Shown here: positions 36,290 through 51,459 of the stretch, piece after piece
How the letters are laid out: each line of letters begins with the position of its first letter
How positions within the stretch are numbered: position 1 is the stretch's first letter
Assembly: GCA_016935015.1 (NCBI GenBank)
Contig: JAFGRT010000122.1
Span: 76,310-140,309 of the forward strand
Origin: Acidobacteriota bacterium
Lineage (GTDB): Bacteria > Acidobacteriota > JAAYUB01
Reading direction: 5' to 3'
Length of the DNA stretch: 64,000 nucleotides
Made by a program: the position numbers and the translations under genes
Notes under the pieces: generated by a model
Seen by the model: the letters and a program-made list of their open reading frames with translations, nothing else
What the model was told of the DNA's origin: nothing
Database searches by the model: none

Positions 36290-37159
36290 TTATTTGGGCA
36301 GCATTCCCCAGGCGATGGCCCCCGGCCCGGCATGGGCGGCGATGGTGGGTCCGCATTCAGCCAGGCGCACTTCTTCCACCGGCATATTCAGTTCTTCCGC
36401 CACTTTTTCCTGCATCATCTTCGCATCAGCCGGGGCATCGACGTGGGCGATCCAGAGGGCAACGGGGCTGTGCTGCAATTCCTTGATGGTCTTGGCCCTT
36501 TCCACCAACATCTCCAGCGCCGCCTGACGGCCACGGGCCCGGTCCACCGGGATCAGTCGTTTATTCTCCAGGTGAATGACGGGTTTGATATTCAATATGT
36601 TGCCCATGAACGCCGCCAGGGCGCTGACGCGGCCCCCCTTGCGCAGCCAGGTGAGATTGTCGACGGTAAAACAGAAATAACTGTCGGCCATATACCGCTG
36701 CAGATAGGTCTCCAGCTGATCGAGGTTTTCCTCTCGGTGCAGGAATTCCGCCGCTTTCTGGACGAGCATGGCCTGGGTGACGCACAGGGAGCCGGTGTCG
36801 ATCTGACGGACACGTTCGGCGAGATTCTGTTTTAAAAACTGCCGCGATCCGCCGGCACTGGCAACACACCCGGAGAGTTCCGACGAAATGTGAAACGAGA
36901 TGACCTGGTCGTAATCCTGCAAGAGCTTTTCGTACATGGCGGCGTATTCGCCGGGGTACGGCGGAGCCGTTTTCACGTCGGCGCGTTTGTGCAGATGCTC
37001 CAGAAACTCATTCCGCTGCAGCGAAATGCCGTCCAGGTAATCGTGGCCCTCCACGAATACGTGAATCGGCATCAGATGGAGCCCGTATTGCTCCACCAGG
37101 CCCGGCGGGAAGTCAGCCGTGCTGTCCACCAGTATTCCAGTTTTTTTCACCTTGGACAC
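36290..37159 (-). CDS. DegV-family fatty-acid-binding protein
   Basis: 289 aa of DegV/EDD-fold length, with an N-terminal GILVDSTAD motif. Confidence 0.8.
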   Translation of the reverse strand: MSKVKKTGILVDSTADFPPGLVEQYGLHLMPIHVFVEGHDYLDGISLQRNEFLEHLHKRADVKTAPPYPGEYAAMYEKLLQDYDQVISFHISSELSGCVASAGGSRQFLKQNLAERVRQIDTGSLCVTQAMLVQKAAEFLHREENLDQLETYLQRYMADSYFCFTVDNLTWLRKGGRVSALAAFMGNILNIKPVIHLENKRLIPVDRARGRQAALEMLVERAKTIKELQHSPVALWIAHVDAPADAKMMQEKVAEELNMPVEEVRLAECGPTIAAHAGPGAIAWGMLPK

Positions 37160-37452
37160 TCCGTTGGATCAAGGATATCTGCCTTTCGATCTCGGCCAAA
37201 CGAAATCATATTATAGTGATCCTTGACCGTGGCATCAAGCCATGTTGTTGAGCGAACCTGTCAATTTGCGTGTTCATTGGCTTTGACTTGATTCCGGCCA
37301 TGTGCTATAAATTATCCACTCTGTCGCGTACAAGGCCGGATGCAAACAACAACACCGCATGACCACTGCTTGACTGCCCGATTCGAATATTGCACAGGCA
37401 GAAACCGGTCTGTACATGATGGCCCATGGACATCCATCGCAAGGAGAATCAT

Positions 37453-38709
37453 ATGAACAAACCCGGTTTTCGCATTCCTCTCGCCCGCCTGGAAGAGGTC
37501 AATGAATTCATGTCTCTCGAAGTGAATCCCCTCACCGAGAGACTGCTGGGCGTCGTGGAAAAATTCGGCGGCGTCGAAGCCATCCGCGAAAAACACACCC
37601 AGGCCGCCCGGCTGGAGACCAAGCTGCAGCGGATCAGGGAATCAGGATCGCCCTACCTGGCGGATCTGGAATGGTTGATGGAACAGCGGGAAAAGAAGGC
37701 CTTCATCTCCATGAATGACTACTACCGCAACATTCTCCAGAACCGCTATGGTGAAGTGTCATTTGCCTCAGACAACGCTGTCACGCTGGAGATCAGTTCG
37801 CTCCATTATTTTCCCTGGCTGATCACCCAGGCCAAGCGGGCCATCGCCGAGCGGGAACTGATGCCGGGCCGATTCATTCGGGTGCGTTTCATGAAGGAAC
37901 AGGAAGCGGACGGCGATCTCCTGGCGGTGACGGCGGCCATGGATATCGTGGGCGCCACCTGGGTGGAGACGCTGGACACCAAAGGTACCGACGGCGCCAA
38001 TGTCCATCTCGGCGGTCCCGAAACCATTACGGGATATTTCGGCGGACCGGGCCAACCCAATCATTATCCGCTGAAATGGGTCGAGGAGTATCTCTACTAT
38101 CACACCAACTACGGTGTCAAACAGGTATTGAACATCAATGCCGGAACGGTTCTGGTCGGCTATCTCCTCCATCAGCTCGGCATTGATATTGAGTTCAAGA
38201 TCTCCGTCTACATGGGCAACGACAATCCCTATTCCGTGCTGTGGACTCTCATGACCGCCAAGATGTTCTCCCGCGATGACGGGACGACTCCCCTCATCGG
38301 CTTCAATTTCGCCAATTCCGTGAACAACGAGACCATCGAGCTGGCGGCTTTCATTCGCAAAGAACTCGGCTTCGAAGACAAGGTCCGTTTCGAGCACCAT
38401 ATCACCGAGACCTGGAAGTCTATCGTGCGCCAGCCGTATGACCGGACGGAGGAACTGATCGAAGTGTCCCGGAAGGTGAAAAACATCAGCGCCAAACACG
38501 AGGGCGGCACACCCGATCAGGAACAACAGCGGGAATTTCCCTCGGATATCCTGACGTATTTCATCCCCAAGGAAGATGTGATCGCCGCCGGCAACATGCC
38601 GAAATTCGAACTGAACTACCTGGACAAGCATGTGGCCCTGAATCACACCGCCGCCGAGCTGATCAAGGCCGGCATTCCGGTAATCGCCGCCTGGAACCTT
38701 CACCAATAA
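37453..38709 (+). CDS. Hypothetical protein (418 aa, no family assigned), first gene of a redox cluster
   Basis: The ATG at 37453 has a perfect AAGGAGA Shine-Dalgarno 6 nt upstream (the track start at 37426 lacks one). Glycine-rich segment GGPETITGYFGGPGQPNHYPL. Confidence 0.55.
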   Translation: MNKPGFRIPLARLEEVNEFMSLEVNPLTERLLGVVEKFGGVEAIREKHTQAARLETKLQRIRESGSPYLADLEWLMEQREKKAFISMNDYYRNILQNRYGEVSFASDNAVTLEISSLHYFPWLITQAKRAIAERELMPGRFIRVRFMKEQEADGDLLAVTAAMDIVGATWVETLDTKGTDGANVHLGGPETITGYFGGPGQPNHYPLKWVEEYLYYHTNYGVKQVLNINAGTVLVGYLLHQLGIDIEFKISVYMGNDNPYSVLWTLMTAKMFSRDDGTTPLIGFNFANSVNNETIELAAFIRKELGFEDKVRFEHHITETWKSIVRQPYDRTEELIEVSRKVKNISAKHEGGTPDQEQQREFPSDILTYFIPKEDVIAAGNMPKFELNYLDKHVALNHTAAELIKAGIPVIAAWNLHQ

Positions 38710-38728
38710 TGCGATTTCGAGGTGCGTT

Positions 38729-39889
38729 ATGATTCCCAATACAACCTTGCAGTGGCCGGGCGTAATCGAATTCGGCGCCGGGAAGCTGAAATCACTGCCC
38801 AATCACCTGGCCGGGCACCGCAGTATCTTCATCCTGGCCGATATACCCGTGAAGGCCGCGCTGGAGCCTGTGATCAGCGATCTAAAGCAGCGACATTGCC
38901 GGGTAATGCTGTCCACGGACGTGGTGCCCGAGCCACCCTTCGAGGCGCTGGAAAAGCTGCTGGAACCGGTCCACGAGTTCGAGCCGGATGCTGTGGTCGG
39001 CGTCGGCGGCGGCTCGGCCATGGATATGGCCAAACTGGTGGCGGTCCTCTTTCCCGGCGAACAGAAGCCGCACGAAGTGGTCGGCATCGGCAATGTGCAC
39101 GGCCGGCCAGTCAAGCTCATCGCCGTGGCCACCACGTCCGGCACGGGGAGCGAGGTCACACCCATCGCCGTGCTGACGGACGTGACCCAGAAACTGAAAA
39201 AGGGTGTTGTCAGTAAATACCTGGTGCCCGATGTGGCCATCGTGGATCCGGAGCTGACCCGTTCCCTGCCGGCGGCGGTAACGGCGGCCACGGGCATGGA
39301 CGCCATGACTCACTGCATCGAGGCCTACACCAATCGCCACGCCCACCCCATCATCGACGTTATCGCCTTGGAGGGGATTCGTCTCATGGGTGGCGCCCTG
39401 GAGACCGCCGTGCATGACGGACAAAACATGGATGCCCGCACGGCCATGGCCCTGGGCAGCCTGTACGGCGGTATGTGCCTGGGACCGGTGAACACGGCCG
39501 CCGTCCACGCCCTGGCCTATCCGCTGGGCGGCGAGTTCAAAGTGGCCCATGGCCTGTCCAATTCGGTGCTGCTCCCCTTCGTGATGGCCTTTAATCTGCC
39601 GGCCTGCATCACCAAGTATGCCAAAATCGCCGCGGCCCTGGGCGTTCCACAAGCCGGGTCCGACGAGGCTATGGCCCGCCAGGCCATCCACGCCGTGCGC
39701 CGGCTGTCCATCAGCTGCGGGATCCCGTCTTCCCTCAATGAGTTCAGCATCCCCGAGCCGGCCATCCCCGCCATGGCCGCCGCCGCTATGCAGGTCAAGC
39801 GGCTGCTGGACAACAATCCCCGCGAGGTCACCCTGGCCGATGCCGAAGCCATTTTCCGTAACGCCTATCACGGACGACTAAACGACTGA
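38729..39889 (+). CDS. Iron-containing (group III) alcohol dehydrogenase
   Basis: GGGS-x-D NAD-binding motif (VGVGGGSAMDMAK) and His-rich Fe ligands (HCIEAYT, HALAYPLG). Confidence 0.85.
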   Translation: MIPNTTLQWPGVIEFGAGKLKSLPNHLAGHRSIFILADIPVKAALEPVISDLKQRHCRVMLSTDVVPEPPFEALEKLLEPVHEFEPDAVVGVGGGSAMDMAKLVAVLFPGEQKPHEVVGIGNVHGRPVKLIAVATTSGTGSEVTPIAVLTDVTQKLKKGVVSKYLVPDVAIVDPELTRSLPAAVTAATGMDAMTHCIEAYTNRHAHPIIDVIALEGIRLMGGALETAVHDGQNMDARTAMALGSLYGGMCLGPVNTAAVHALAYPLGGEFKVAHGLSNSVLLPFVMAFNLPACITKYAKIAAALGVPQAGSDEAMARQAIHAVRRLSISCGIPSSLNEFSIPEPAIPAMAAAAMQVKRLLDNNPREVTLADAEAIFRNAYHGRLND

Positions 39890-39899
39890 GGAGCTCTGT

Positions 39900-41627
39900 A
39901 TGGAAGGATTTTTCAACCGGATTTTACGCATCGATCTTGACACCGAGACGTTTCGCTACGAGTCTCTGAATGATGATCTACTGCGCCGGACCCTGGGCGG
40001 CAAAGGACTCGGCGTGCATTTCCTGCTGACGGAAAACCCGCCGGGTGTGGATCCCCTCGACCCGGAAAACATCTTCGTCATCACCGTCGGACCGGTGACG
40101 GGAACCAAGATGTGGGGGCAATCCCGGTTCGGCGTGTTCAGCAAGAGCCCGGCCACCGGCGGGTACGGTGAGTCTTATTGCGGCGGGACGCTGCCCCCGC
40201 GCATCAAGGGCTGCGGCGTTGACGCCATCATTCTCCGCGGAAGCTGCCCCGCCCTGCGTTCGTTGTATATCGACGCCGACGGTGTCACCTTCCATGACGC
40301 CACGATTCTGGCCGGCGCCCATACCTGCGATGCCGAGGAACATTTCCTCAAACATTCTCCCACCGGCGCCGGGGCCATGGCCATCGGGCCGGCCGGCGAA
40401 AACCGGGTGGTCATGGCCTGCATCAAGGCCGACCGTTGGCGCAGCCTGGGCCGGGGCGGCATGGGCGCCGTGCTGGGCTCCAAGAACGTCAAGGGGATCG
40501 TTTTCAACGGCCGGCAAACATGCCCGATCGCCGACGAGACGGTGGTGAGCGAACTGATCAAAAAAGTGGCGGCCAAGGGCAAAGAATCTCCCGTCACTAA
40601 AATCTACCAGAATTTCGGAACACCCAACCAGGTCAAAGTCACCAACGCCCACAAGTGCTTTCCCACCCGCTATTGGCAAAAGGGTTATTTTGATAAATGG
40701 GAGAACATTTCCGCCGACTATATGCAGGCCCACTTTGATGTGAAGGCCTGCGGCTGCCCTTCCTGCTTTCTCCGCTGCACCAAACACAGCGTGGTTCGGG
40801 AAGGACGGCACGCCGGCCTGGAGATCGAGGGGCCCGAATTCGAGACCCTGTATGCCATTGGCGGCATCAACGAGATCGACAGCCTGGAGGAGATCGCCTG
40901 GCTCAACGATCTGTGCGACCGCTACGGTATCGATACCATGAGCGCCGGCAACATGGCCGGGTTCGCCATAGAAGCCTACAAGGCCGGACGGACGGACTTC
41001 GCCATCGACTACAACCAGCCAGACCGCGTCGCCGAGCTCTTCCGGATGATCACCTGCCGCGAGGGTCTGGGCGACCTGCTGGCCCAGGGCATCAAGACGG
41101 CCGCGGCCACCCTGTGCCTGGAACACATAGCCATCCATGTCAAGGGGTTGGAGCCGGGCGGTTTCGATCCGCGGGTGCTCAAGGGCATGGGGCTCTCCTA
41201 TGCCACGTCGCCGCGGGGCGCCTGCCACCTGCGCGGCACGTTCTACAAGGCCGAGCTGTCGGGCGAAATGGACAAAAACCAGATCGAGGGCAAAGCCCGG
41301 CTGCACATCGACTACGAGGACCGGTCCGCCCTGTTCGACTGCCTGATCTTGTGCCGTTTTTTCCGCGACTTCATCCTGTGGGACGAGCTGCAGCAACTCA
41401 TCACCGCCCTCACCGGCCTGCCCCTGGACAAGAGCGCCCTGCAGCGCCTGGCCAACGACATCACCCAGCGCACCCGCGAATACAACACCCGCGAGGGGCT
41501 TGACGCCACCACCGACACCCTGCCGCCCCCGTTCGTCGAGCAGGCCAACGCCGAAGGTGCCCGCCTCACCCGGGCCGAATTGGAAACCATGGTGCGGGAG
41601 TACAACGAGATCCGTGCCGGCACTTGA
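39900..41627 (+). CDS. Aldehyde:ferredoxin oxidoreductase (tungsten/molybdopterin AOR family)
   Basis: AOR_N plus the catalytic domain; 575 aa. Cysteines for the [4Fe-4S] cluster are present (CxxC...C). Confidence 0.85.
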   Translation: MEGFFNRILRIDLDTETFRYESLNDDLLRRTLGGKGLGVHFLLTENPPGVDPLDPENIFVITVGPVTGTKMWGQSRFGVFSKSPATGGYGESYCGGTLPPRIKGCGVDAIILRGSCPALRSLYIDADGVTFHDATILAGAHTCDAEEHFLKHSPTGAGAMAIGPAGENRVVMACIKADRWRSLGRGGMGAVLGSKNVKGIVFNGRQTCPIADETVVSELIKKVAAKGKESPVTKIYQNFGTPNQVKVTNAHKCFPTRYWQKGYFDKWENISADYMQAHFDVKACGCPSCFLRCTKHSVVREGRHAGLEIEGPEFETLYAIGGINEIDSLEEIAWLNDLCDRYGIDTMSAGNMAGFAIEAYKAGRTDFAIDYNQPDRVAELFRMITCREGLGDLLAQGIKTAAATLCLEHIAIHVKGLEPGGFDPRVLKGMGLSYATSPRGACHLRGTFYKAELSGEMDKNQIEGKARLHIDYEDRSALFDCLILCRFFRDFILWDELQQLITALTGLPLDKSALQRLANDITQRTREYNTREGLDATTDTLPPPFVEQANAEGARLTRAELETMVREYNEIRAGT

Positions 41628-41640
41628 TAGGAGAAAAGTC

Positions 41641-42600
41641 ATGGAGCAGCCACCGAAAATCGTCATTCTGGACGGCCACACCGTCAACCCGGGGGACCTC
41701 TCCTGGGCACCCTTTGAGCAACTGGGCGACCTGACGGTCTATCCCCGCACCGCAGCCGCCGACACGTACGAGCGCAGTCGTGAGGCCGAGATCATCATCA
41801 CCAGCAAGGTCGTCCTGGACCGGGCCATGCTGGACCGGCTGCCCCGGCTGCGCTACATCGGTGTCATCGCCACCGGCTACAACGTGGTGGACCTGGCGGC
41901 CGCCCGCGAGCGGGACATCCCCGTAACCAACGTGCCCGATTATTGCACCGAGTCTGTGGCCCAGCTGGTCATGGCCCATCTGCTGGAGCTGGCCCGCCGC
42001 ATCGGCGCCCATAACCGTTCCGTACGCAACGGCGACTGGAGCCGGGCCAAAGACTTCTGCTACTGGATTCATCCCCAGGTGGAGCTCACCGGCAAAACCC
42101 TCGGTCTCATCGGTTACGGCCATATCGGGGGGGAAGTAGCCCGGCTGGCCCGCGCCTTCGGCATGCGCATCATCGCCTTCGACATCTATCCCAAGGACGA
42201 AGACGGTGTCGACTTCGTGTCCCTGGAACGGGTGTTCACTGACAGCGACGTCGTCAGCCTGCACTGCCCCCTGACCGACGAGAACCGGGGCCTCATCAAC
42301 ACCGTCAACCTGCGGAAAATGAAGCCCACGGCCTTTCTCATCAACACGAGCCGTGGTCCCCTGGTCAACGACCGGGACCTGGCCGCCGCCCTGGCCGAAG
42401 GCGTCATCGCCGGCGCCGGCCTGGACGTGCTGTCCACCGAGCCGCCGCCCGAGGACAATCCCCTGCTGGACGCGCCCAACTGCCACATTACTCCCCATGT
42501 GGCCTGGGCCAGCGAGGAGGCGCGTCTACGGCTCATCCGTCTGACGGCGGAAAACGTCGAGTCGTTTCTCAAGGGTAAGCCTATAAACGTCGTTAATTAA
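41641..42600 (+). CDS. D-isomer-specific 2-hydroxyacid dehydrogenase (glycerate/hydroxypyruvate reductase-like)
   Basis: GxGxxG (GLIGYGHIGGEVA) and the catalytic R/E/H triad region. Trimmed to the ATG at 41641 behind AGGAGAAAAG. Confidence 0.85.
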   Translation: MEQPPKIVILDGHTVNPGDLSWAPFEQLGDLTVYPRTAAADTYERSREAEIIITSKVVLDRAMLDRLPRLRYIGVIATGYNVVDLAAARERDIPVTNVPDYCTESVAQLVMAHLLELARRIGAHNRSVRNGDWSRAKDFCYWIHPQVELTGKTLGLIGYGHIGGEVARLARAFGMRIIAFDIYPKDEDGVDFVSLERVFTDSDVVSLHCPLTDENRGLINTVNLRKMKPTAFLINTSRGPLVNDRDLAAALAEGVIAGAGLDVLSTEPPPEDNPLLDAPNCHITPHVAWASEEARLRLIRLTAENVESFLKGKPINVVN

Positions 42601-42621
42601 GCGTATTTTTATGAATTTTGC

Positions 42622-43872
42622 ATGTACCAGGCAGCCGGCATGAGTGTTTCACTCATCAAAATCAGACAGTTTTTTGACTGCGCCCCGGCCGTGGATCCGG
42701 CCGTGCTGCTGCCCACCGAGCTGCGCCGCACCCTGCCCCCCCTCCGCCCCGGTGCCCGCGTGGCCGTGGCTGTTGGCAGCCGCGGGATCCACGCCATCGA
42801 CCGCCAGGTCAGGATCATCATCGACAGTCTCAGGGACGCCGGCGCCGAGCCCTTCCTGGTGCCGGCCATGGGCAGCCACGGCGGCGCCACGGCCGACGGC
42901 CAGGCGGCCGTCCTAGCCAGCCTGGGCCTGGACGAAGCAGGCGTGGGGGCGCCCGTCCGTTCCTCCATGGCCACGGTGGAGCTGCCCGACGACGGCAGCG
43001 GCCGGCGCGTCTTCATGGACCGCCTGGCCTGGGAATCGGACGGCGTCGTCCTGGTGAACCGTGTCAAGCCCCACACCGATTTCCGCGGCCTATACGAAAG
43101 CGGCCTGGTTAAAATGGCGGCCATCGGCCTCGGCAAGCACGACCAGGCGCGGGAGATCCACCGCCACGGAGTGACCGGGCTGCGTGACCTCACGCCGGCC
43201 GCGGCCCGCCGCCTCTTCGCCACGGGTAAAATCCTCCTGGGCGTGGCCATCGTGGAGAACGCCCGCGACGAGCCCATGCTAATCCGTGCCCTGGGGCCCC
43301 ACGAGATCCTGGACGAAGAGCCGGCCCTACTGGAGCTGGCCCGGCAAAACATGCCCGCCCTGCCGGTGGACCGGCTGGACGTTCTGCTGCTGGACGAGAT
43401 GGGCAAGAACATCAGCGGCACCGGCCTCGATCCCAACATCATCGGCCGCATCCGTGTCCTCGGCCAGCCCGAGCCGGAGCGTCCGGCCATCACGCAGATC
43501 GCTGTTTGCGGGCTGACCCCCGAGTCCCACGGCAACGCCATCGGCGTGGGCCTGGCCGACGTCATCACCCGGCGCCTGTTCGACAACATCGATTTGGCGG
43601 CCACCTACGCCAACGTCATCACCACCACGTTCCTGGAACGGGCCAAGATCCCGCTGGTGGCCGACACGCCCGCCGCCGCCCTCAGGGTGGCCCTGATGGC
43701 CTGCGGTCCCCTGGCCCCGGAAGAGATGCGGATTATTCGCCTGCACAACACGCTGCAGCTGGAGGAGATGTACGTCAGCCACGGCGTTCTGAAGGAGCAG
43801 GGGAAGTCGGTGACCATCCGCGGTCAGTGGGACTCTGTCTTCGACGGTACCGGCGAGCTGCGGCCGTTCTGA
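42622..43872 (+). CDS. LarA-like (lactate-racemase N-terminal domain, DUF2088) protein; assignment tentative
   Basis: ~415 aa. The segments VAVGSRGI and AMGSHGGAT resemble LarA-family motifs. Its neighbours are a 2-hydroxyacid dehydrogenase and an AOR. Confidence 0.45.
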   Translation: MYQAAGMSVSLIKIRQFFDCAPAVDPAVLLPTELRRTLPPLRPGARVAVAVGSRGIHAIDRQVRIIIDSLRDAGAEPFLVPAMGSHGGATADGQAAVLASLGLDEAGVGAPVRSSMATVELPDDGSGRRVFMDRLAWESDGVVLVNRVKPHTDFRGLYESGLVKMAAIGLGKHDQAREIHRHGVTGLRDLTPAAARRLFATGKILLGVAIVENARDEPMLIRALGPHEILDEEPALLELARQNMPALPVDRLDVLLLDEMGKNISGTGLDPNIIGRIRVLGQPEPERPAITQIAVCGLTPESHGNAIGVGLADVITRRLFDNIDLAATYANVITTTFLERAKIPLVADTPAAALRVALMACGPLAPEEMRIIRLHNTLQLEEMYVSHGVLKEQGKSVTIRGQWDSVFDGTGELRPF

Positions 43873-43892
43873 TTTCAAAACACTTCATATGA

Positions 43893-45938
43893 CTATTCCA
43901 ATCGGTAGGCCGTCAGGAGGTGGTCCTCGTACGCCGGTGTCAGTTCCAGGATCGTCTCGACGTAATGACTGTTGCCGTAAAAGGGAACGATGATCCAGCG
44001 GAAACCGGCCTGGCGGAGCATTCGACGCATCGTTTCGGCGTCCGGGGCCGACGGCGATTCATAGGGATAGAGCACACAAAACAATCCCTCGCTGGCCGGC
44101 GGATCGGCAAAATACGGCCGGATCCCGACGGTGGTGCTATGCTGCGGACGACCCGCCGGCCCAGGATCGGCCAGTGGCCGGAGAAGCACCGTGTCGCCGG
44201 CGCCGCGCCGGATCGAGGTCGACAGCCGGAACCGCTGCTCTGCCGCATCCGCCACTTCCAGCTCCGTCACCAGCCCCCCCCTGGCCCGGCGGCGCTCGCC
44301 CAGCCAGATGTCATGGGGCCGGCTGGTTTCGATGCACAGACGTCCGGGGCCCTGCAGGTAGCCAAGGGCGACGAAAGTGGATTCTTCCGCCATGGCGGGA
44401 GCGGCGGCCAGGATGTCTGCCGGCCGGCCGGTGCCGTAATGATAATAATCGTTTTCGGCGATGATCTCGCGGATAGGGCTGACCTCGTACTGCTCTAGCG
44501 CAGACTGCGGCACTCGGTTGACCATGCCGTCCCGGCCCATGACTTTCCGGTGGTGAACGGTCTGGAAATACAGGGCGTCGGCGAAATAATGCAGATCCAT
44601 GACACCTTCATCCGGGCTGGAGTTGTGCTGTAGCTGGGTGTAAAACGGGCTGACCGGCAGAGGGTTCATGACGAACGGTACGCCCAGACTTTCGCCCACC
44701 AGTAGTCCACAGACCAGGGTGGCGAAGCCCGCCATCAATTTATCCGATCGCAGCCGGCCGCTGAGGTGATGGACACCGGCGGCCAAAAAAAGGCACCCGG
44801 CGAACCAGGTCATGATATGGAAGCGGATGGGTGAGCGGATGATGCCGGCGCCGGGGATCCCGTCGGCCAGCAGGCCATATGGCAGGGTCACCGACTCATA
44901 GAGCTCACCGCCCGTCCGCAGGTGATACCCCAGGGAAAGGACGAAGAACATTACCAGCCACCCGGTGAAAACACATCGGATCTCCCGCCGGCAGGTGAAC
45001 CAGCCCACGCCGGCCAGCAGCCAGGCCGTCCAGGGGATGAAGTTCTCGGGCGTAACGTTGTTGGCCCGCCAGTGGCCGCCGCCCGAGGCCACCAGCCGGC
45101 CGAAAAGGGACCGCTCGCCGGGGATGACGAACGACGCAAGGTCGGCGTTATCCCGCCGGGCGATGGTCTCAGCCGGCAGGCCCTGACCGGCTTCCCACAC
45201 CATACCGCTGATCAGCGGGCTGAGCACCAGGACGCTGATGAGGATGATGACGGCCGTTCCCCGCGCCCGCAGCAGCAAGAAGCGGATGTCGCACCGTGCC
45301 CGGTACAGAATCAGGAGGAGTGATGCCATCACGCAAAACACAAAATAGTACCAGCTGGTCAGGGCGATGAGGACCAGCCAGCCGGCGGCGGCCAAGGCCT
45401 TCCGGATCCGCCATCCCGCCTCATCCGCCGCCAGCAGGGACTGGACAAAGAACGGGATCCACTGGTAGTGCATCAGGTTGAGGTGCCCGGCTTCGAGCTT
45501 GGCAAAATGATAGGGGCAGAAGGAATAGGCGGTTCCGGCCACCAGGGCGCCCCAGAAACCGAATCCCAGGTAGCGGCCCAGCCGGAACATTCCCAGGCCG
45601 GCCAGGACGAAACTCAGCAGGGCGGACAGGTTGTACACCGTCACCAGCGACAGGAAAGGCTGCAGCGGAATCGAGGCCAGAGTGACCGGTAGATTCCAGG
45701 TATGCAGATAATTGCACAGTCCGGCGGGGAAATACACGAAGTTATGGCAGAACGGATGGATCAGGCTCACTAGGCTGTATTTCAGCCACCACATGTTCCA
45801 GGTGAAGAGAGAGGCGTCCCCGGCGCCGATGAGACGGTCGGACAAATGGACGACGGCGGGATAGGTGGACAGGACGGCCAGAACCAGATAGCCCGTTGTG
45901 GCGACGGTTAGCTCCCGCTTCTCGGTGGCCCGTTTCAT
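43893..45938 (-). CDS. Large polytopic membrane protein, GT-C-fold glycosyltransferase-like (ArnT/PMT/YfhO-like); hypothetical
   Basis: 681 aa, more than 10 predicted TM helices, and a C-terminal soluble domain. Its start abuts the repeat-rich region. Confidence 0.5.
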   Translation of the reverse strand: MKRATEKRELTVATTGYLVLAVLSTYPAVVHLSDRLIGAGDASLFTWNMWWLKYSLVSLIHPFCHNFVYFPAGLCNYLHTWNLPVTLASIPLQPFLSLVTVYNLSALLSFVLAGLGMFRLGRYLGFGFWGALVAGTAYSFCPYHFAKLEAGHLNLMHYQWIPFFVQSLLAADEAGWRIRKALAAAGWLVLIALTSWYYFVFCVMASLLLILYRARCDIRFLLLRARGTAVIILISVLVLSPLISGMVWEAGQGLPAETIARRDNADLASFVIPGERSLFGRLVASGGGHWRANNVTPENFIPWTAWLLAGVGWFTCRREIRCVFTGWLVMFFVLSLGYHLRTGGELYESVTLPYGLLADGIPGAGIIRSPIRFHIMTWFAGCLFLAAGVHHLSGRLRSDKLMAGFATLVCGLLVGESLGVPFVMNPLPVSPFYTQLQHNSSPDEGVMDLHYFADALYFQTVHHRKVMGRDGMVNRVPQSALEQYEVSPIREIIAENDYYHYGTGRPADILAAAPAMAEESTFVALGYLQGPGRLCIETSRPHDIWLGERRRARGGLVTELEVADAAEQRFRLSTSIRRGAGDTVLLRPLADPGPAGRPQHSTTVGIRPYFADPPASEGLFCVLYPYESPSAPDAETMRRMLRQAGFRWIIVPFYGNSHYVETILELTPAYEDHLLTAYRLE

Positions 45939-47712
45939 CCCCTGCCCCCTTCGCTAACGTCAAATGGATGCGTATTTTCGACGACAGAACCTGATCGTCA
46001 GCCAACGTAGCACAACCGAGCCCAAAACACCAGCGGCAGGTTGGAGGAAATGACCCGTTCCAAATTTGGTGTTGGATTTCCATGATACCATCGTTGTCGC
46101 TAACGTCGTCGTCATGGTGATCGACAAAATCGCTGTCGTGGTCGTGATTGTAATCGATTCTTCGAAGTGGCCCGATCCTCACGGACAGTCTTCGGAATAA
46201 TTAAGATTCCGAAATATCCATTGTCCTGATCGTCTACGCAGAAGGATGTAAGGAAGAGTGTGTTCTCTGTGATTACCCTTCATATTCTATTGAACGGAAG
46301 ACGTTTATCGAGTGCGGCGCGGGGAGAGCCTGCGGCGCCGCCACCGGCTACTGGCCCGCAACCCTTACCCGGGGTGGGAGGCAAAGAGCATGGAAAAGTT
46401 CTCTCTTCATCCATCATCCATGGCTTGCCGAAAGAGCATTGTCGATCGTCAGTAATTTATCGAAAAGATCGATTACGATAACAAATACGACAACGAAAGC
46501 GATCAGGAAAGGAGTAGCCAAACGCGATCATGGACAAGAATTTTTCACTTATATTTCAACATGTTTGCCAGGTCCGACCCCGAAACAACTGGCACGATGG
46601 TAGTTCAAGCTTCCAGCTTGAGTGTGGTTGCAAGCAGGATGCTTGCGCTACACCCTAATTTTTGGAGGGCCTTTCAGGCCTCGGGTTCTATCGGAGGGAT
46701 CGTATTTTCGTGGGCTCACGTTGTTCGCCCACGGCTACCATCGGGTTGGCCCTTCGGGCCTCCAGAAGGGGGGAGTCCCGGGGAAAGTGAATACGGGCAG
46801 GCGGCGGGTCGAGAGGTTCGACTACGATTACGACAACGACAGCGAGCCTGACAAGGGCGGCCAGGGGCGATCAGGGCCAAGAGTCATTTCGCTGTCGTTG
46901 TCGTGATCGTCAGCGTGATCGATTCATAGCGGGATATGATCCTCACGTAATTTGTTCGAAATAAATATTTTCCGTTATCCTCCATAGCGGTGGATGGCTC
47001 TGCTGATTCTGCCGGGTCCGTAAAGAAAATTGTCCTGCCGCCCCTGCCCGGGGCGGCAATTTCCTTACGACGTCCTTTCCGGTGGCCGTGCCTCCGGCGC
47101 CGCCACCGGCTACTGGCCCCCCACCCCTGCCCGGGGTGGAAATCAAAGAGCATGGAAAAAACATCATTCCATGCATCATCAAGTCTGTGCTGAAAGATCG
47201 TTGTCGATCATAAGCCTTTCGTCGAGGGGGATCGACTACAATTACGACGACGACAACGACAGCGATTAAGACAACAGCAGCGCGGAGGTCTCAATCAGGG
47301 GCGAGAGTTTTTCGTTGTCACCATTTATTACCGTGAATTATATCCCTGATGGTCTTTGGGTTCGTTACCGATCCCGATAGTGTTGGCACTTTTCTCGACT
47401 ACTCTATCGACTACCATTACGACAACAATAACAACAGCGATCGGGACAGAGGCGGCCAGGACTACACTGTTGGAATCGATGGGGCAAACGAGTCGATTAC
47501 GACGACGACAACAAGAGTTTGCAGATGCAGGCTGTGCGGGAGAGGATGCGAGATCTCCGGTTCCCCTTCTTTTGCTGGCCGGCAGATTGTCTCGGTCGGC
47601 CGCCCGGGCCGGATCAATCCGGGATTGGATTTGACTCGGAGCGAGAAATATGTAACATTGATCGCGAGGCGTCATCTTAAACGCGCAGAGCGATACACCA
47701 AGGGGTTGAACC
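45939..47712. repeat. Repeat-rich ~1.8-kb region. It holds at least 7 degenerate copies, on both strands, of a 30-40-bp (NAC)n motif (atcgaYtacNaYtacgacaacgacagcga). It also holds two paralogous ~180-bp units, each with a GC-rich palindromic box and a tiny MEK... ORF.
   Basis: Motif copies at 46094-46158 (-), 46468-46506, 46817-46846, 46888-46923 (-), 47231-47267, 47406-47441 and 47492-47518. Paralogous units at ~46330-46510 and ~47090-47270. Confidence 0.7.
47030..47269 (+). other. Candidate small ORF ending in IDYNYDDDNDSD (the most intact member of the DY-motif family); coding status unproven
   Basis: Track ORF 47030..47269. An internal ATG would give the 32-aa peptide MHHQVCAERSLSIISLSSRGIDYNYDDDNDSD. 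The paralogous unit at 46330-46510 is frameshifted. Confidence 0.2.
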
Positions 47713-48237
47713 ATGCGGAGGATAGCGATTGCCGGCTCACTGATCCTGCTGCTCCTGGCCGCACCGGCCGCGGCGGCGCCGGCCAAGAAGGTGGTCAAGG
47801 GCGACAAGAAGGAGTTGCGGGGGGTCACCCGCATCTACGTCCAGGCCAATGACAAGGAGTATCGCCGCATCATCGAGACGTACATCATGGAGGAGCTGCG
47901 GGGGATGTCCATCGTTTCCCTCATGTCCGAGGCCGATGCGGTGCTGACGTTCACCTACGAGAATCCGGAACGGAAGAAATCCACCCAGTTCAAGTACAAG
48001 GGGCACAATCCGCGGAAAATGCGGGTGGAGGAGTACGATTACGACAATTTCATCATGCAGGGCCGGGGGGAGATCTTCAAGGTCACGGGGTATGCCCCGG
48101 ACTCCCAGAAAGTGACGCTGCGCCTGCTGGCGGAATGGGAGAGCGGCAAGATCAACCTGGCCGAGGTGACGGACCTGCAGATCGCGCCCCTCGACTTCGC
48201 CAGGGAATTTGTCAAGCTGTGGCGCAAATACAACTAG
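47713..48237 (+). CDS. Hypothetical secreted protein (signal peptide) containing an EEYDYDN motif
   Basis: ATG with an AAGGGG ribosome-binding site. Signal peptide MRRIAIAGSLILLLLAAPAAAAPA. 174 aa. Confidence 0.6.
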   Translation: MRRIAIAGSLILLLLAAPAAAAPAKKVVKGDKKELRGVTRIYVQANDKEYRRIIETYIMEELRGMSIVSLMSEADAVLTFTYENPERKKSTQFKYKGHNPRKMRVEEYDYDNFIMQGRGEIFKVTGYAPDSQKVTLRLLAEWESGKINLAEVTDLQIAPLDFAREFVKLWRKYN

Positions 48238-48252
48238 CGGCGGCGCTGGCCG

Positions 48253-49329
48253 TCATTTCTCCCGATAATTCGGATCGTTGCGGTTGACGATCTGCAACCG
48301 CCGCCACGACGGATCGTCGTCGATGGGCAGCGGCCCTTCCACATCCGTCAGGAAATAATTCCCCTGCCCGTCCGTATAGGCTTTCTCATACATGGGCAGC
48401 CAGGTCTGTCGTCCCGTCTGGGGATCCAGGGCCTCCATCTGCCCGGTGAGGACCTTGTGCACTTCCGTCTGGATATCGCTGCGCGTCTGGCTGCGTTGCC
48501 GCTCCATCTGGCGATCGGCCTCGTTGAGTTGCCGGATGATCTCGTTGTACTGCTGGCCGCGCTGGGCCGAGGCCGCCGCGGCGCGCACCACCCACTGCGG
48601 GTCCAGCCGGAAGGTGCGCAGGCAGAGGTCCATGACCCGGGCGTCCTGGCGCCAGCGCCGGGTGGGGGCCACCCAGCCGAAAGTGCCGACGGTGGACCAG
48701 ATGTTCCCCCCCAGGTTGTACAGGATGGCGTAGATGCGACCGACGCGGGGTGTGCCCGCGATGGTGCACTCGAAATTCACGTAACCGCACTGGGAATGGG
48801 TGGCCACTGCAGGCACAAAGGGCCGCAACTCGGGCGATTCCACCGCCGGGCCGATGATGCGCGGATTCTGGAACTCCTGGGCGGACAGGGCGCCGAAAAT
48901 GACGGTTTGCACGTACTGGGGGATGGTCATGTAGGGGTACTGCCAGCAGCCGTTGAGGACACTGCCATACTGCACCCCCAGCCCCATGCCGGCGCCGGGA
49001 TGGGAGCGCGGATCCTGGAAGTAGAATCGGGGGTACCAGCCAAAAAAGGACTGCCCGTCGGGGCTGGTAACCCGAAAGCGGATGTTGGACTCCACCAGGT
49101 CCACCACGTTCCCGGGCACGCCGCTGCCCACCATGCCGCCTTCGGCCCGCCAGCCACGGGGAATCAGCAGGGTGAAAGCGCCCTGGTACGCCTCGCGGTG
49201 CAGGGTGAGATACGTACCCGGCCCATCCCGCCCAGCCTGGGCCAGGGAAAATCCGCCCATCATGGCCAGCGACATGAGGGCGGCGGCCGCCCGTCGTCGG
49301 ACTGACTGATTCCAGCAACGTTTAGTCAT
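48253..49329 (-). CDS. Hypothetical secreted protein (possible Tat-type signal, RRRAAAAL)
   Basis: Trimmed to the ATG at 49329, preceded by AAGGGAGAG. The n-region carries RRR, followed by a hydrophobic core and AQA. Confidence 0.5.
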   Translation of the reverse strand: MTKRCWNQSVRRRAAAALMSLAMMGGFSLAQAGRDGPGTYLTLHREAYQGAFTLLIPRGWRAEGGMVGSGVPGNVVDLVESNIRFRVTSPDGQSFFGWYPRFYFQDPRSHPGAGMGLGVQYGSVLNGCWQYPYMTIPQYVQTVIFGALSAQEFQNPRIIGPAVESPELRPFVPAVATHSQCGYVNFECTIAGTPRVGRIYAILYNLGGNIWSTVGTFGWVAPTRRWRQDARVMDLCLRTFRLDPQWVVRAAAASAQRGQQYNEIIRQLNEADRQMERQRSQTRSDIQTEVHKVLTGQMEALDPQTGRQTWLPMYEKAYTDGQGNYFLTDVEGPLPIDDDPSWRRLQIVNRNDPNYREK

Positions 49330-49374
49330 CAATGCTTTCTCTCCCTTCACGAGCGTTCAGCCTCCACGACACGC

Positions 49375-50166
49375 CTACATCAGCCCCTGGTACATGCCGC
49401 CGTCGATGAGGAGGGTGGTGCCGGTGATGTAGGCCGCCGGTTCCGAAGCCAGGAAGGCCACCAGTGCCCCGAATTCATCAGGCCGGCCGATGCGCCGTGC
49501 CGGAATGGCGCTCTCCAGGTCAGTGCGCACCTCATCCACCAACCGGTTTTCCCGCTGCGCCCGGTCGGCCAGCAGCTGTTCCACCCGTTCCGTCATGATG
49601 TAGCCCGGGGCGATGGTGTTGGCGGTGATGTTCTCGGCGGCCACCTGGCTGGACAGGGTTTTGATGTACGCCACCACGCCGGCCCGGGACACGTTGGACA
49701 GGGCCAGTTGGGGCAGCGGCTGTTTCACGGAGATGGACGCGGAGGCGATAATCCGACCCCAGCGTTGTCGCCTCATGGCCGGCAGAAAAACGTTCACCAG
49801 CCGGATGGTGCTGAGCAGATTGAGCTCCACGGCGGTGGCATAGTCGTCGGCGCCGAAATCCAGCACCGATCCGGGCGGCGGCCCGCCGGCGTTAGCGAAC
49901 AAGATGTGGGCCGTGCCGCAGTGATCCAGGACCGTTGCGGCGAACCGGGCCACGGCCGCCGGGTTCGTGACGTCGCATTCCAGGGCCAGGACGTCACTAC
50001 CCGTCGCATCCCGGATGGCCTCGGCCGCGGCGGTGATAGCCTCCCGGTCGCGGGAACAGATGGCCACACGGGCGCCTTCGGCGGCCAGGGCTTCGGCTAC
50101 GGCCCGACCCAATCCGCGGCTGGCCGCGGTCACCACGGCCACTTTTCCCTCAATCTGCAGATTCAT
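49375..50166 (-). CDS. Short-chain dehydrogenase/reductase (SDR) family oxidoreductase
   Basis: TAASRGLG cofactor motif plus the catalytic S...YxxxK. AGGAGAGG ribosome-binding site. Confidence 0.85.
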   Translation of the reverse strand: MNLQIEGKVAVVTAASRGLGRAVAEALAAEGARVAICSRDREAITAAAEAIRDATGSDVLALECDVTNPAAVARFAATVLDHCGTAHILFANAGGPPPGSVLDFGADDYATAVELNLLSTIRLVNVFLPAMRRQRWGRIIASASISVKQPLPQLALSNVSRAGVVAYIKTLSSQVAAENITANTIAPGYIMTERVEQLLADRAQRENRLVDEVRTDLESAIPARRIGRPDEFGALVAFLASEPAAYITGTTLLIDGGMYQGLM

Positions 50167-50250
50167 GTCCTCTCCTGATGGCCCACCGGCGCAAGCACCG
50201 AGGTAGACGATCTTTCTCCAGCAGGCAACCTCTGCAGCGCCGGCTTGGCA

Positions 50251-51459
50251 TTACAGCAATCCGGCCAGCCGGGACACTCCCTCCCGAATCAGCTTTTCGT
50301 CGGAATAGGAGAAATTCAGGCGCAGTTCGTTGGTGCGAACGATGCCGGCCGGATAGAACTTGCTGCCGGGAATGAAAGCCACCTTGTGCTGGATGGCCCG
50401 CTCGAAAAGGTCATCGGCGTTGATTTCCGGCGGCAGGGTTACCCAGACGAACATGCCGCCTTCGGGTTGGGTCCACGTCACGCCGTCCGGCATGCAGTCG
50501 GCCAAGGCGTTCAGCATGGCGTCCCGCCTCGGCCGGTACAGATCGATAATCCAGTCGATATGCCGCCGCATATGGCCGGCCTCGATGAAACGGGCCGCCA
50601 CGCGCTGGGTGGCGCAATCGGGGCTGACAGTGGTTTTTTGGGCCCACTTGACCATGGGGCCGATCATCTCCGGCGGCCCCGCCGCGAAACCCAATCGCAG
50701 GCCCGGCCCGAGAATTTTGGAAAAGGATTTGGCAATGGTCACCAGCTGGGGATCGTCAAATTCCGTCCGGGCCAGCTCCCATAAGGTCAGGATCCGTTCC
50801 CCGCTGTAGCGCAATTCGCGGTACGGCTGATCCTCCAGGATGGGAATGCCGAATTCGGCGGCGATGGCGATGATTTCCCGTCGTCGGTTCAAGTCCATGG
50901 TCCGGCCACTGGGATTCTGGAACTCGGGGATGACGTAGATGAATTTCACGGCCGCTTTCCGGTCGTGCAGTCCGCGCAGAGTGTCGCGCAGCTGGTCCGG
51001 AATCATTCCCAGCTCGTCCATCTCGATCCCGGCCAGGCGCGCGCCACAGCTCTCCATGGCCGTAACGGAGCCGGGAAACCCCGGCGCTTCGCAGACGATG
51101 GTATCACCCGGATCGATGAGGGTGCGGGTGAAATAGTAGATCCCGTTGGTGGAGCCAACGGTGATCATGATCTCCTCATCCGAAAGATAGGGCACTTCCT
51201 CAAATGCTTTCAGCGCCTGCTTGAAGAACCGGTCGCCGTCGCTGGCGCCATATTGCAGAACATCCGCCCCCTCCTCGAGGATGACCTGGCTGAACAACCG
51301 GGCCAGCAATTCGCGGGGGAATGAATCGGGACTGGGCAGTCCGCCGGCGAAGGAAATCATCCCTGGTACGCCCTTGGTCACCTTGAGAATCTCTCGGATA
51401 AAAGAGTGTTTCATGATCGCCGTGTGCTGCGAGTAGAGCCTCTCGATGGGTTGCTTCAA
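50251..51459 (-). CDS. PLP-dependent aminotransferase, class I/II
   Basis: 402 aa of fold-type I aminotransferase length and pattern, including the SFSK lysine region (KSFSKILGPGLRLG). TTG start behind GGGAGG. Confidence 0.75.
   Translation of the reverse strand: MKQPIERLYSQHTAIMKHSFIREILKVTKGVPGMISFAGGLPSPDSFPRELLARLFSQVILEEGADVLQYGASDGDRFFKQALKAFEEVPYLSDEEIMITVGSTNGIYYFTRTLIDPGDTIVCEAPGFPGSVTAMESCGARLAGIEMDELGMIPDQLRDTLRGLHDRKAAVKFIYVIPEFQNPSGRTMDLNRRREIIAIAAEFGIPILEDQPYRELRYSGERILTLWELARTEFDDPQLVTIAKSFSKILGPGLRLGFAAGPPEMIGPMVKWAQKTTVSPDCATQRVAARFIEAGHMRRHIDWIIDLYRPRRDAMLNALADCMPDGVTWTQPEGGMFVWVTLPPEINADDLFERAIQHKVAFIPGSKFYPAGIVRTNELRLNFSYSDEKLIREGVSRLAGLL

Follow-up and report, generated by a model that had tools for sequence, protein, structure and literature searches.

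Background

The closest described counterpart of the route considered here is engineered: in the synthetic homoserine cycle (He et al. 2020), pyruvate and formaldehyde yield 4-hydroxy-2-oxobutanoate (HOB) and then homoserine (reviewed in PMC8879981). Homologues of the lactate racemase LarA have been reported to epimerise 4-deoxy-threonate/erythronate and to racemise 2,4-dihydroxybutyrate (PMC11770544). Group 22 of these homologues carries T/D at positions 175/176 and D, T and I at the positions of LarA Y294, Q295 and K298 (PMC7583248). Here we analyse a cluster of five genes (g1 to g5, plus strand, 37453-43872) in a 64,000-nucleotide stretch of an Acidobacteriota bacterium (GenBank assembly GCA_016935015.1, contig JAFGRT010000122.1, positions 76,310 to 140,309), hereafter called the window. 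The first gene (g1, 37453-38709) encodes a 418-aa protein, G1, and is followed by genes for an iron-containing alcohol dehydrogenase (Fe-ADH), an aldehyde ferredoxin oxidoreductase (AOR), a 2-hydroxyacid dehydrogenase (2HADH) and a LarA homologue (LarAH).

G1 represents an enzyme family that is genuinely unassigned and very widespread, and its genomic context is unusually coherent. The HOB/homoserine node is its most likely place of action, a reading to which we give a probability of about 0.5 and in which its chemistry and the direction of flux are inferred. Any single reaction for G1 is much less probable, far below this figure.

The G1 family

An initial annotation of the window, made from its letters alone, had found no assignable family for the 418-aa protein and suggested that it may be a new enzyme of the route. 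Database searches agree, and the protein is a good candidate for such an enzyme. G1 has no match in NCBIfam or in Pfam (E<=0.01), phmmer found no related PDB sequence, and a family profile gave 0 matches among PDB sequences at E<=10. At least 8000 relatives were returned by a word-indexed search, the best 120 of which are 62-100% identical, 413-456 aa long and all annotated as 'hypothetical'. When species-representative genomes were scanned, G1 was found in at least 582 GTDB species of Bacteria and Archaea, and all 80 carriers inspected among these are metagenome-assembled genomes (MAGs) or genomes from uncultured or enrichment organisms. The archaeal carriers include Loki-, Thor- and Hermodarchaeota, Thermoplasmatota, Bathyarchaeia and Undinarchaeales; the bacterial ones include Desulfobacterota, Chloroflexota, Myxococcota, Spirochaetota, Thermotogota and Elusimicrobia. 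A metagenome scan added at least 578 further loci. G1 belongs to a rarer kind of conserved hypothetical protein, one with a full-length enzyme fold in hundreds of uncultured anoxic-sediment species.

Pairwise identity among the G1 proteins of 166 loci was 58% at the 1st percentile, 64.5% at the median and 76% at the 95th percentile, irrespective of domain; between Asgard archaea and Deltaproteobacteria it is about 65%. An exhaustive hidden Markov model (HMM) search of 1.84 billion 50%-cluster representatives returned about 1-3 full-length G1 representatives plus fragments and nothing else. By sequence comparison, G1 is thus a family without detectable distant relatives, and its members are under very strong constraint. 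No paper describing it was found in a literature search.

In an alignment of 38 G1 sequences, about 120 columns are invariant and many of these are polar. They include E113, R140/R143/R145, D175/D180, H185, K249, E314-H315-H316 and K348-H349-E350, a pattern that looks enzyme-like. The glycine-rich motif GGPETITGYFGGPGQPNHYPL, which the initial annotation had pointed out, occupies residues 187-207. Several G1 matches of odd length were considered as possible fusions and set aside. P0134 (with a piece of BKACE), P0225 (with pieces of AOR and PanB), P0124 and P0140 look chimeric or frameshifted, and the 1074-aa and 662-aa 'G1' open reading frames (ORFs) of loci L094, L095 and L144 consist of open upstream frames with Arg-rich junk.

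Gene neighbourhoods of G1

ORFs were called in 166 loci, clustered and labelled with Pfam and NCBIfam, and near-duplicates were dropped to leave the 150 loci to which the counts below refer. The most common neighbour is ketopantoate hydroxymethyltransferase (PanB), which touches G1 in 52 loci and usually lies directly upstream. A frequent order is AsnC>PanB>G1, followed by an aminotransferase or by a Glu/Leu/Phe/Val-type (ELFV) dehydrogenase with CBS domains. AsnC/Lrp regulators occur in 24 loci, and the ELFV-CBS dehydrogenase adjoins G1 in 10. This last protein (about 640 aa; L022:9396-11321 and nine other loci) has a divergent dehydrogenase core and two C-terminal CBS domains; its copies lie directly downstream of G1 and are about 60% identical between phyla.

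The G1-linked PanB proteins pass the panB equivalog model TIGR00222 (310 bits against a cut-off of 207.6). Their median identity is 66%, so that they are as conserved as G1, and they co-vary with it (r = 0.59); homoserine dehydrogenase (Hom), AOR and the aldolase fusion described below are likewise conserved and co-vary with G1. Such unusual conservation together with co-variation suggests that the G1-linked PanB is a dedicated paralogue.

It could also be that the adjacent PanB is a genuine ketopantoate hydroxymethyltransferase and that G1 acts on 2-oxoisovalerate, ketopantoate or pantoate, either in an unrecognised step of pantoate synthesis or breakdown or as an analogue of dihydroxy-acid dehydratase that makes 2-oxoisovalerate. 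The aminotransferase and ELFV dehydrogenase would then provide a link to valine, and in the window a pantoate-like 2,4-dihydroxy acid would be the substrate of the redox genes, which would oxidise it. No other neighbour is nearly as common as PanB, which scores above the equivalog cut-off; valine and leucine dehydrogenases belong to the ELFV type, CoaE and FolC follow G1 in L002, and the known substrates of LarA homologues include 2,3-dihydroxyisovalerate and 2-hydroxy-3,3-dimethylbutyrate (PMC11770544). However, neither panC, panD, panE nor any ilv gene was found beside a PanB-G1 pair in the loci examined, and the contexts with Hom, thrC and AOR do not fit. Elsewhere PanB is replaced by an aldolase of the dihydrodipicolinate synthase (DHDPS) family fused to a formaldehyde-activating enzyme (Fae) domain, and the Schiff-base partner of DHDPS aldolases is pyruvate rather than a 3,3-disubstituted oxo acid. 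Ketopantoate also has no C3 proton for enolate chemistry, and the conservation and co-variation of the neighbouring PanB speak for a dedicated paralogue. We consider a pantoate role distinctly unlikely.

DHDPS-family aldolases touch G1 in 20 of the 150 loci, and half of them carry the Fae domain, which passes TIGR03126. The fusion proteins are 474-556 aa long (L028:1850-3328 on the minus strand, L025:9252-12153, L053, L054, L071, L083 and others). They adjoin G1 in Anaerolineae (as two tandem copies), Bathyarchaeia, Undinarchaeales and Hermodarchaeota, and a literature search found no paper on a DHDPS-Fae fusion. All 30 G1-adjacent DHDPS proteins compared keep the Schiff-base Lys, and in all 30 the DapA Arg is replaced by C, V, I, T or F. 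The residue in question corresponds to E. coli DapA R138 (in the 'PSRT' motif), which we take to be the Arg that binds aspartate semialdehyde. One of the G1-adjacent proteins passes TIGR00674 (243 bits against 206). Judged from these residues, the G1-adjacent DHDPS proteins are predicted pyruvate aldolases for an aldehyde other than aspartate semialdehyde, and the Fae fusion points to formaldehyde as that aldehyde.

Hom touches G1 in 25 loci and passes NF004912. The order in these loci, which belong to Thermoplasmatota, is always G1>Hom>AOR>aminotransferase, often beside a four-subunit 2-oxoacid:ferredoxin oxidoreductase. For the most part, a given locus has just one of PanB, DHDPS(-Fae) and Hom in contact with G1. 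Within 5 kb of G1, aminotransferases were found in 40 loci and AOR in 33. Threonine genes also occur: in L010 (an Elusimicrobia MAG) the order is thrC, a proposed homoserine kinase, G1 and an aminotransferase, and in Lokiarchaeum thrC lies four genes upstream of G1>aminotransferase. The architecture PanB>G1>|<DHDPS<AOR was observed in L101, L106, L119, L145 and L146. Fe-ADH is directly downstream of G1 in 4 of the 150 loci and within 5 kb in 5, and again in L167 and L168. The median gap from G1 is about 3 nt to Hom and about 20-60 nt to the other partners. The remaining neighbours are heterogeneous, without pan, ilv or sugar genes; when 117 unlabelled neighbours were compared with Pfam, no family was found in more than 4, and there were no ilv or pan genes among them.

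Predicted fold of G1

The AlphaFold2 (AF2) model of G1 (pLDDT 89.7, pTM 0.90) consists of six N-terminal helices, which form a domain of about 100 residues, followed by a (beta/alpha)8 (TIM) barrel. The invariant Glu, His, Lys and Arg residues sit on barrel strands, and the glycine-rich stretch 187-200 is a low-confidence loop following strand 3. The best Foldseek match in the PDB is a class II fructose-1,6-bisphosphate (FBP) aldolase (E 1e-4, probability 1.0, TM-score 0.35, root-mean-square deviation about 9.4 A). Further matches are psicose 3-epimerase, members of the enolase superfamily, homocitrate synthase and 3-deoxy-D-arabino-heptulosonate 7-phosphate (DAHP) synthase, the whole range being E 1e-4 to 1e-2 with probabilities up to 1.0. 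On the predicted model, G1 falls only loosely among the metal-dependent, enolate-forming barrels.

Three families were tried as homes for G1 and rejected at sequence level. Against class II FBP aldolase, hhalign gave a probability of 0.1% with E. coli FbaA, and there is no Pfam match, which leaves just the weak structural resemblance. A pyruvate kinase-like origin was considered because 'ETLDTKG...GGPETITG' past strand beta3 and 'FKISV' in G1 resemble LDTKGPEIRTG and SKIEN of pyruvate kinase; the value with E. coli PykF was 0.4%. In the case of PanB, comparison with an alignment of 52 sequences gave 0.1%.

A proposed role at the HOB/homoserine node

The mutual exclusion of PanB, DHDPS(-Fae) and Hom beside G1 is the pattern expected if each provides a different link to the same intermediate. 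No compound other than HOB/homoserine connects all G1 contexts, and G1, which is present in every one of them, should therefore produce or consume HOB or an analogue substituted at C4. A PanB-type enzyme or a DHDPS-Fae pyruvate aldolase would interconvert HOB with pyruvate and a C1 unit. An aminotransferase or amino-acid dehydrogenase would interconvert HOB and homoserine, Hom and AOR would connect homoserine through aspartate semialdehyde to aspartate, and thrB2/thrC would lead from homoserine to threonine. G1 itself may be a new metal-dependent lyase of this node, one that carries out a metal-assisted enolate reaction at C3/C4 of a 4-substituted 2-oxobutanoate. Its step, which would make or consume HOB, could be an elimination or hydration, an aldol-type step or a related lyase step; given the fold, the most plausible course is enolisation with the help of a metal and then elimination or addition at C4, or else an aldol-type step.

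The window would represent a hydroxy-acid variant of this scheme. The 2-hydroxyacid dehydrogenase (g4) would interconvert the 2-oxo acid and the D-2-hydroxy acid and, together with the LarA homologue (g5), would act at C2 and connect HOB with D-/L-2,4-dihydroxybutyrate. Fe-ADH (g2) and AOR (g3) would act at C4, taking alcohol to aldehyde to carboxylate or the reverse (with ferredoxin for AOR), for example towards malate or oxaloacetate, and this pair may parallel Hom and AOR of the archaeal clusters. The initial annotation had described a pathway from acids through aldehydes to alcohols. Its conserved unit stands, and the generic route is too narrow, as the partners of G1 are mainly PanB, DHDPS(-Fae), Hom, aminotransferases and thrC. 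With this 150-locus partner set in view, the pathway is better described as a module for C4 2-oxo/2-hydroxy/2-amino-4-hydroxy acids, the chemistry of which is proposed from its members.

Several points weigh against placing G1 at this node. The PanB neighbours of G1 score as ordinary panB, and the known substrate of PanB is 2-oxoisovalerate, not pyruvate. All G1 loci derive from MAGs or metagenomes, and 36 of the 150 are without any recurrent partner, though many contigs are short. G1 has no sequence-level tie to any characterised enzyme (hhalign against FbaA, PykF and PanB below 1%), and its Foldseek TM-scores are only 0.3-0.38, so that metal dependence and enolate chemistry are guesses. With PanB or DHDPS assigned to the C-C bond and the aminotransferase to HOB/homoserine, the context leaves the step of G1 itself undefined, and the direction of the AOR step is ambiguous. 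In addition, HOB has been described as non-native and as a metabolite of a synthetic pathway only (PMC8879981).

A more specific proposal can be made, which we regard as quite improbable in its full form. G1, a PanB-type enzyme or DHDPS-Fae and an aminotransferase would form a natural route between pyruvate plus a C1 unit (proposed to be methylene-tetrahydrofolate, its tetrahydromethanopterin counterpart or formaldehyde) and C4 amino acids via HOB, in which G1 would be a new lyase that exchanges the C4 substituent of the oxo acid by way of 2-oxobut-3-enoate. The synthetic homoserine cycle is so far the one place from which such chemistry is known. In one version of this exchange, G1 would interconvert HOB plus H2S or methanethiol with 4-mercapto- or 4-methylthio-2-oxobutanoate. 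If true, an aminotransferase and G1 would convert homoserine to homocysteine or methionine, or run the opposite conversion, with no need for O-acylation. For many sediment anaerobes and archaea this would close the gap in making homocysteine or in breaking down methionine.

The neighbours of G1 point to a junction of C1 metabolism (methylene-tetrahydrofolate/formaldehyde), pyruvate and the aspartate/homoserine family, and we know of no natural enzyme set described for this junction. If the reaction of G1 were named, thousands of genes would gain an annotation together. Such an assignment could bring to light a natural counterpart of the engineered formaldehyde-assimilation step or a missing sulfur amino-acid step in anaerobes, and it would also give the first substrate clue for the group-22 nickel-pincer enzymes.

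Recurrence of the five-gene block

The order G1-FeADH-AOR-2HADH-LarAH recurs in L087, where G1 is 90% identical and the dxr-rseP-ispG synteny is also kept, in L167/L012 (G1 67% identical) and in L168 (68%). In L007 the FeADH-AOR-2HADH-LarAH block is inverted and lies 2.4 kb from G1, and in L008 (a Bdellovibrionales MAG) the block is without AOR and a 2-oxoacid:ferredoxin oxidoreductase stands ahead of G1. Recurrence in at least five other lineages marks the block as a functional unit. We conclude that the five genes, which the initial annotation had also grouped together, are one conserved operon and functional unit of an anaerobic acidobacterium, with co-transcription presumed. Directly upstream of the block in L167 (1285-8374) and in L012 are genes for both corrinoid iron-sulfur protein subunits, a RACo activator and a CooC-like ATPase, and the same stretch encodes a 343-aa protein of unknown function and a histone-deacetylase-family hydrolase.

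Relatives of g5 in L169-L172 lie in FeADH-AOR-2HADH-LarAH or FeADH-LarAH-AOR blocks without an adjacent G1. The four redox genes are thus a module of their own, which G1 joins in one sub-lineage. The same blocks would suit the explanation that G1 is a bystander (a regulator, a chaperone or an unrelated housekeeping enzyme) beside a self-contained aldehyde/hydroxy-acid module, as would the loci without a recurrent partner and the variation of G1 neighbours between phyla. We hold this to be highly improbable: G1 is tightly spaced with its partners, it keeps its position in the five-gene block across lineages in which G1 is 63-90% identical, its identity co-varies with that of the partners, and a TIM barrel with so many invariant polar residues looks enzymatic.

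Redox genes g2 to g4

The four family names given in the initial annotation (Fe-ADH, AOR, 2-hydroxyacid dehydrogenase and LarA-like protein) proved right by Pfam and NCBIfam, and all four proteins are ordinary members of these known families. The product of g2 (38729-39889, plus strand, 386 aa) matches the Pfam families Fe-ADH (138 bits) and ADH_Fe_C (177 bits). It is below all NCBIfam equivalog cut-offs, the nearest models being of the lactaldehyde reductase/ErcA type (ErcA 265 bits, FucO 264 bits).

The AOR-family protein encoded by g3 (39900-41627, plus strand, 575 aa) matches AFOR_N (216.9 bits) and AFOR_C (326.5 bits), and its translation has the CxxCxxxC motif (CPSCFLRC). The closest PDB sequence is the P. 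furiosus AOR 1aor (285 bits, E 1e-83), and the formaldehyde ferredoxin oxidoreductase 1b25 scores 229 bits. The idea of a dedicated formaldehyde or semialdehyde enzyme finds no support in sequence, since both AORs tested are nearer to the P. furiosus AOR than to formaldehyde oxidoreductase.

The D-isomer-specific 2-hydroxyacid dehydrogenase encoded by g4 (41641-42600, plus strand, 319 aa) matches 2-Hacid_dh_C (206 bits) and 2-Hacid_dh (96 bits). Its best NCBIfam model is PRK06487, '2-hydroxyacid dehydrogenase' (350 bits, under the cut-off of 448). Like g2, it reaches no NCBIfam equivalog cut-off.

The LarA homologue g5

The 410-aa product of g5 (42640-43872, plus strand; ORF open from 42622) passes NF052515, 'nickel pincer cofactor-dependent isomerase, group 22' (481.7 bits against 400, residues 10-393). 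Two group-22 members listed by Desguin et al. 2020 (PMC7583248 supplement) share 52% and 46% identity with it. The match to Pfam Lar_N is weak (19.6 bits, cut-off 23.3), and phmmer found no PDB sequence. The AF2 model (pLDDT 91.3) has the two-domain LarA fold. Foldseek ranks 1-11 in the PDB are all LarA-family structures (9q3j, 9eia, 7s91, 6d6z, 2yjg and 6c1w among them; E 2e-8 to 2e-6), and the next match is at E 1e-2.

In numbering from the 42640 start, R48, H80, H145 (in PHTD), K158 and H174 are invariant against the two published members and 17-33 relatives. They correspond to LarA R75, H108 and H174 (catalytic), K184 (cofactor tether) and H200 (Ni ligand), a mapping made by motif and spacing (the K-to-H spacing is 16, as in LarA) and not by direct alignment to LarA. 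Thus the LarA fold, the catalytic His pair, the Lys tether and the Ni-binding His, which the initial annotation had proposed to look for, were all found. We consider g5 a putative C2 racemase/epimerase of a small hydroxy acid that depends on the nickel-pincer nucleotide (NPN). A crude motif search within the window found neither a LarE PP-loop nor a LarC N-terminus.

A lactate racemase proper (LarA group 1) was rejected for g5, because Y294/Q295/K298 and F175/F176 differ in group 22 and g5 has the same PHTD. The published neighbours of group 22 are short-chain dehydrogenases/reductases (SDRs), IlvD/Edd dehydratases (30%), TRAP transporters and sugar kinases (PMC7583248 Table S1). In a 7.3-Mb genome (L173:7001-11393), a group-22 LarA homologue is followed by genes for a DUF1537-type acid-sugar kinase, a PdxA-like dehydrogenase and a KdgT permease. 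The DUF1537 kinase family belongs to four-carbon acid-sugar catabolism (references in PMC12994016 and PMC10580937), and the L173 context hints that group 22 epimerises four-carbon acid sugars. Because of the substrate-site differences, the published neighbours and the L173 context, g5 more likely acts on small polyhydroxy or 2,4-dihydroxy acids than on lactate. A role in lactate or aromatic hydroxy-acid metabolism, which the initial annotation had put forward for study, is not indicated, the usual group-22 neighbours being sugar-acid or four-carbon acid genes.

Another reading is a sugar-acid pathway, in which G1 would be a new 2,3-dihydroxy-acid (aldonate/tetronate) dehydratase and a functional analogue of IlvD/Edd. 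Fe-ADH and AOR would convert a polyol or aldose to an aldonic acid, C2 of which the LarA homologue would epimerise, G1 would dehydrate it to the 2-keto-3-deoxy acid, and a DHDPS-type aldolase would split it into pyruvate and an aldehyde that AOR would oxidise. The logic is that of the non-phosphorylative Entner-Doudoroff and Dahms pathways, and it overlaps with the HOB proposal, as dehydration of a C4 acid (tetronate) yields HOB. The published group-22 neighbours, the L173 context, the PanB>G1>|<DHDPS<AOR architecture and the known activities of LarA homologues on four-carbon acids all speak for it, and enolase-superfamily acid-sugar dehydratases (3ozm, 3op2) are among the Foldseek matches of G1. 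However, the 150 G1 loci are essentially without sugar kinases, lactonases, aldose dehydrogenases and sugar transporters, and it is genes of amino-acid metabolism that dominate around G1 (aminotransferases, ELFV dehydrogenase, AsnC regulators, Hom and thrC). Only about 3-5 loci have a LarA homologue together with G1, and the FeADH-AOR-LarAH blocks of L169-L172 exist without G1. A sugar-acid role for G1 is therefore unlikely in our view.

Layout of the cluster and its flanks

By ORF calls, Pfam and NCBIfam, the plus strand at 37453-43872 holds five successive co-directional ORFs separated in order by 19, 10, 13 and 39 nt, which bears out the tight spacing described in the initial annotation. 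The perfect Shine-Dalgarno sequence that it had noted for the first gene is also present: AAGGAG lies at 37441-37446, 6 nt ahead of the ATG at 37453. This ribosome-binding site falls within the intergenic region between the DegV gene and g1 (37160..37452, read directly), the presumed promoter region, although a sigma-70 scan found no plus-strand promoter there. Direct reading of the DNA places the g4 start at ATG 41641, with AGGAG just before it. The start of g5 is most likely ATG 42640, as judged by the N-termini of the family, although the ORF opens at 42622.

Six terminator-like sites were found against 5.5 expected from shuffled sequence; being no commoner than in shuffles, they are consistent with a single transcript. 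No Rfam family was found in 36500-44500 at E<=1 apart from one chance-level match, and neither the window nor 21 bacterial loci yielded a riboswitch or other RNA element as a clue to a ligand.

At protein level the window is identical to an Acidobacteria MAG (P0001 and P0271, 100% identity); an exact-sequence look-up of P0001 returned no record. Both flanks of the cluster are unrelated to it. Upstream are a divergent DegV gene (36290-37159, minus strand) and dxr-rseP-ispG. Locus L087, from a close relative, has both the five-gene cluster and the genes upstream of it in common with the window. Downstream, a convergent gene (43893-45938, minus strand) encodes a 681-aa polytopic membrane protein without a Pfam or NCBIfam match. 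It is followed by about 1.8 kb without a convincing ORF (45940-47710), in which the GC content falls to 0.54. Within it a 30-56 nt motif, ATCGAYTACGAYTACGACAACGACAGCGAT, recurs in both orientations, with at least 8 copies, and two stretches of 136 nt (46328-46463 and 47090-47225) form a direct repeat of 76% identity; searches for an Rfam family or a tandem repeat found none.

A 402-aa aminotransferase is encoded beside an SDR gene 6.4 kb downstream of the cluster (50254-51459, minus strand). Its type, MocR/PdxR-AT-like, is also that of the aminotransferase downstream of G1 in bacterial PanB-G1 operons. In g2-g5 and the genes just downstream (38729-51459), third-position GC is 0.78-0.88 against about 0.65-0.78 elsewhere in the window, and this segment may be a compositional island.

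Comparison with known systems

In the case of g5, the likeness is to LarA group 22 (Desguin et al. 2020), with which it has the model score, the LarA fold and the Arg/His/His/Lys/His set in common. As in modules of P. furiosus-type AOR with alcohol dehydrogenase, g3 stands directly after Fe-ADH, and archaeal G1 clusters pair AOR with Hom in a similar way. Compared with the P. furiosus enzyme, the AOR of the window is short (575 aa) and divergent (285 bits), and its metal may be either W or Mo.

G1 resembles the class II aldolases (PF01116) and other enolising TIM barrels (psicose 3-epimerase, enolase superfamily, DRE-TIM lyases) in having His, Glu, Lys and Arg on the barrel strands and a mobile glycine-rich loop. 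It differs from them in an extra 100-residue helical N-terminal domain and in the absence of HMM or profile-profile similarity, and no known metal-ligand pattern could be mapped onto the predicted model. PanB, an enolising TIM barrel that depends on Mg, attaches a C1 unit to C3 of a 2-oxo acid; it is the commonest neighbour of G1, yet unrelated to it in sequence (hhalign probability 0.1%).

With the synthetic homoserine cycle, the G1 loci have the same proposed intermediates, for which the neighbours of G1 offer a DHDPS-Fae or PanB-type enzyme, aminotransferases, Hom and thrC. G1 itself has no counterpart in that cycle, and whereas the cycle is engineered from promiscuous E. coli enzymes, the genes around G1 are natural, clustered and conserved.

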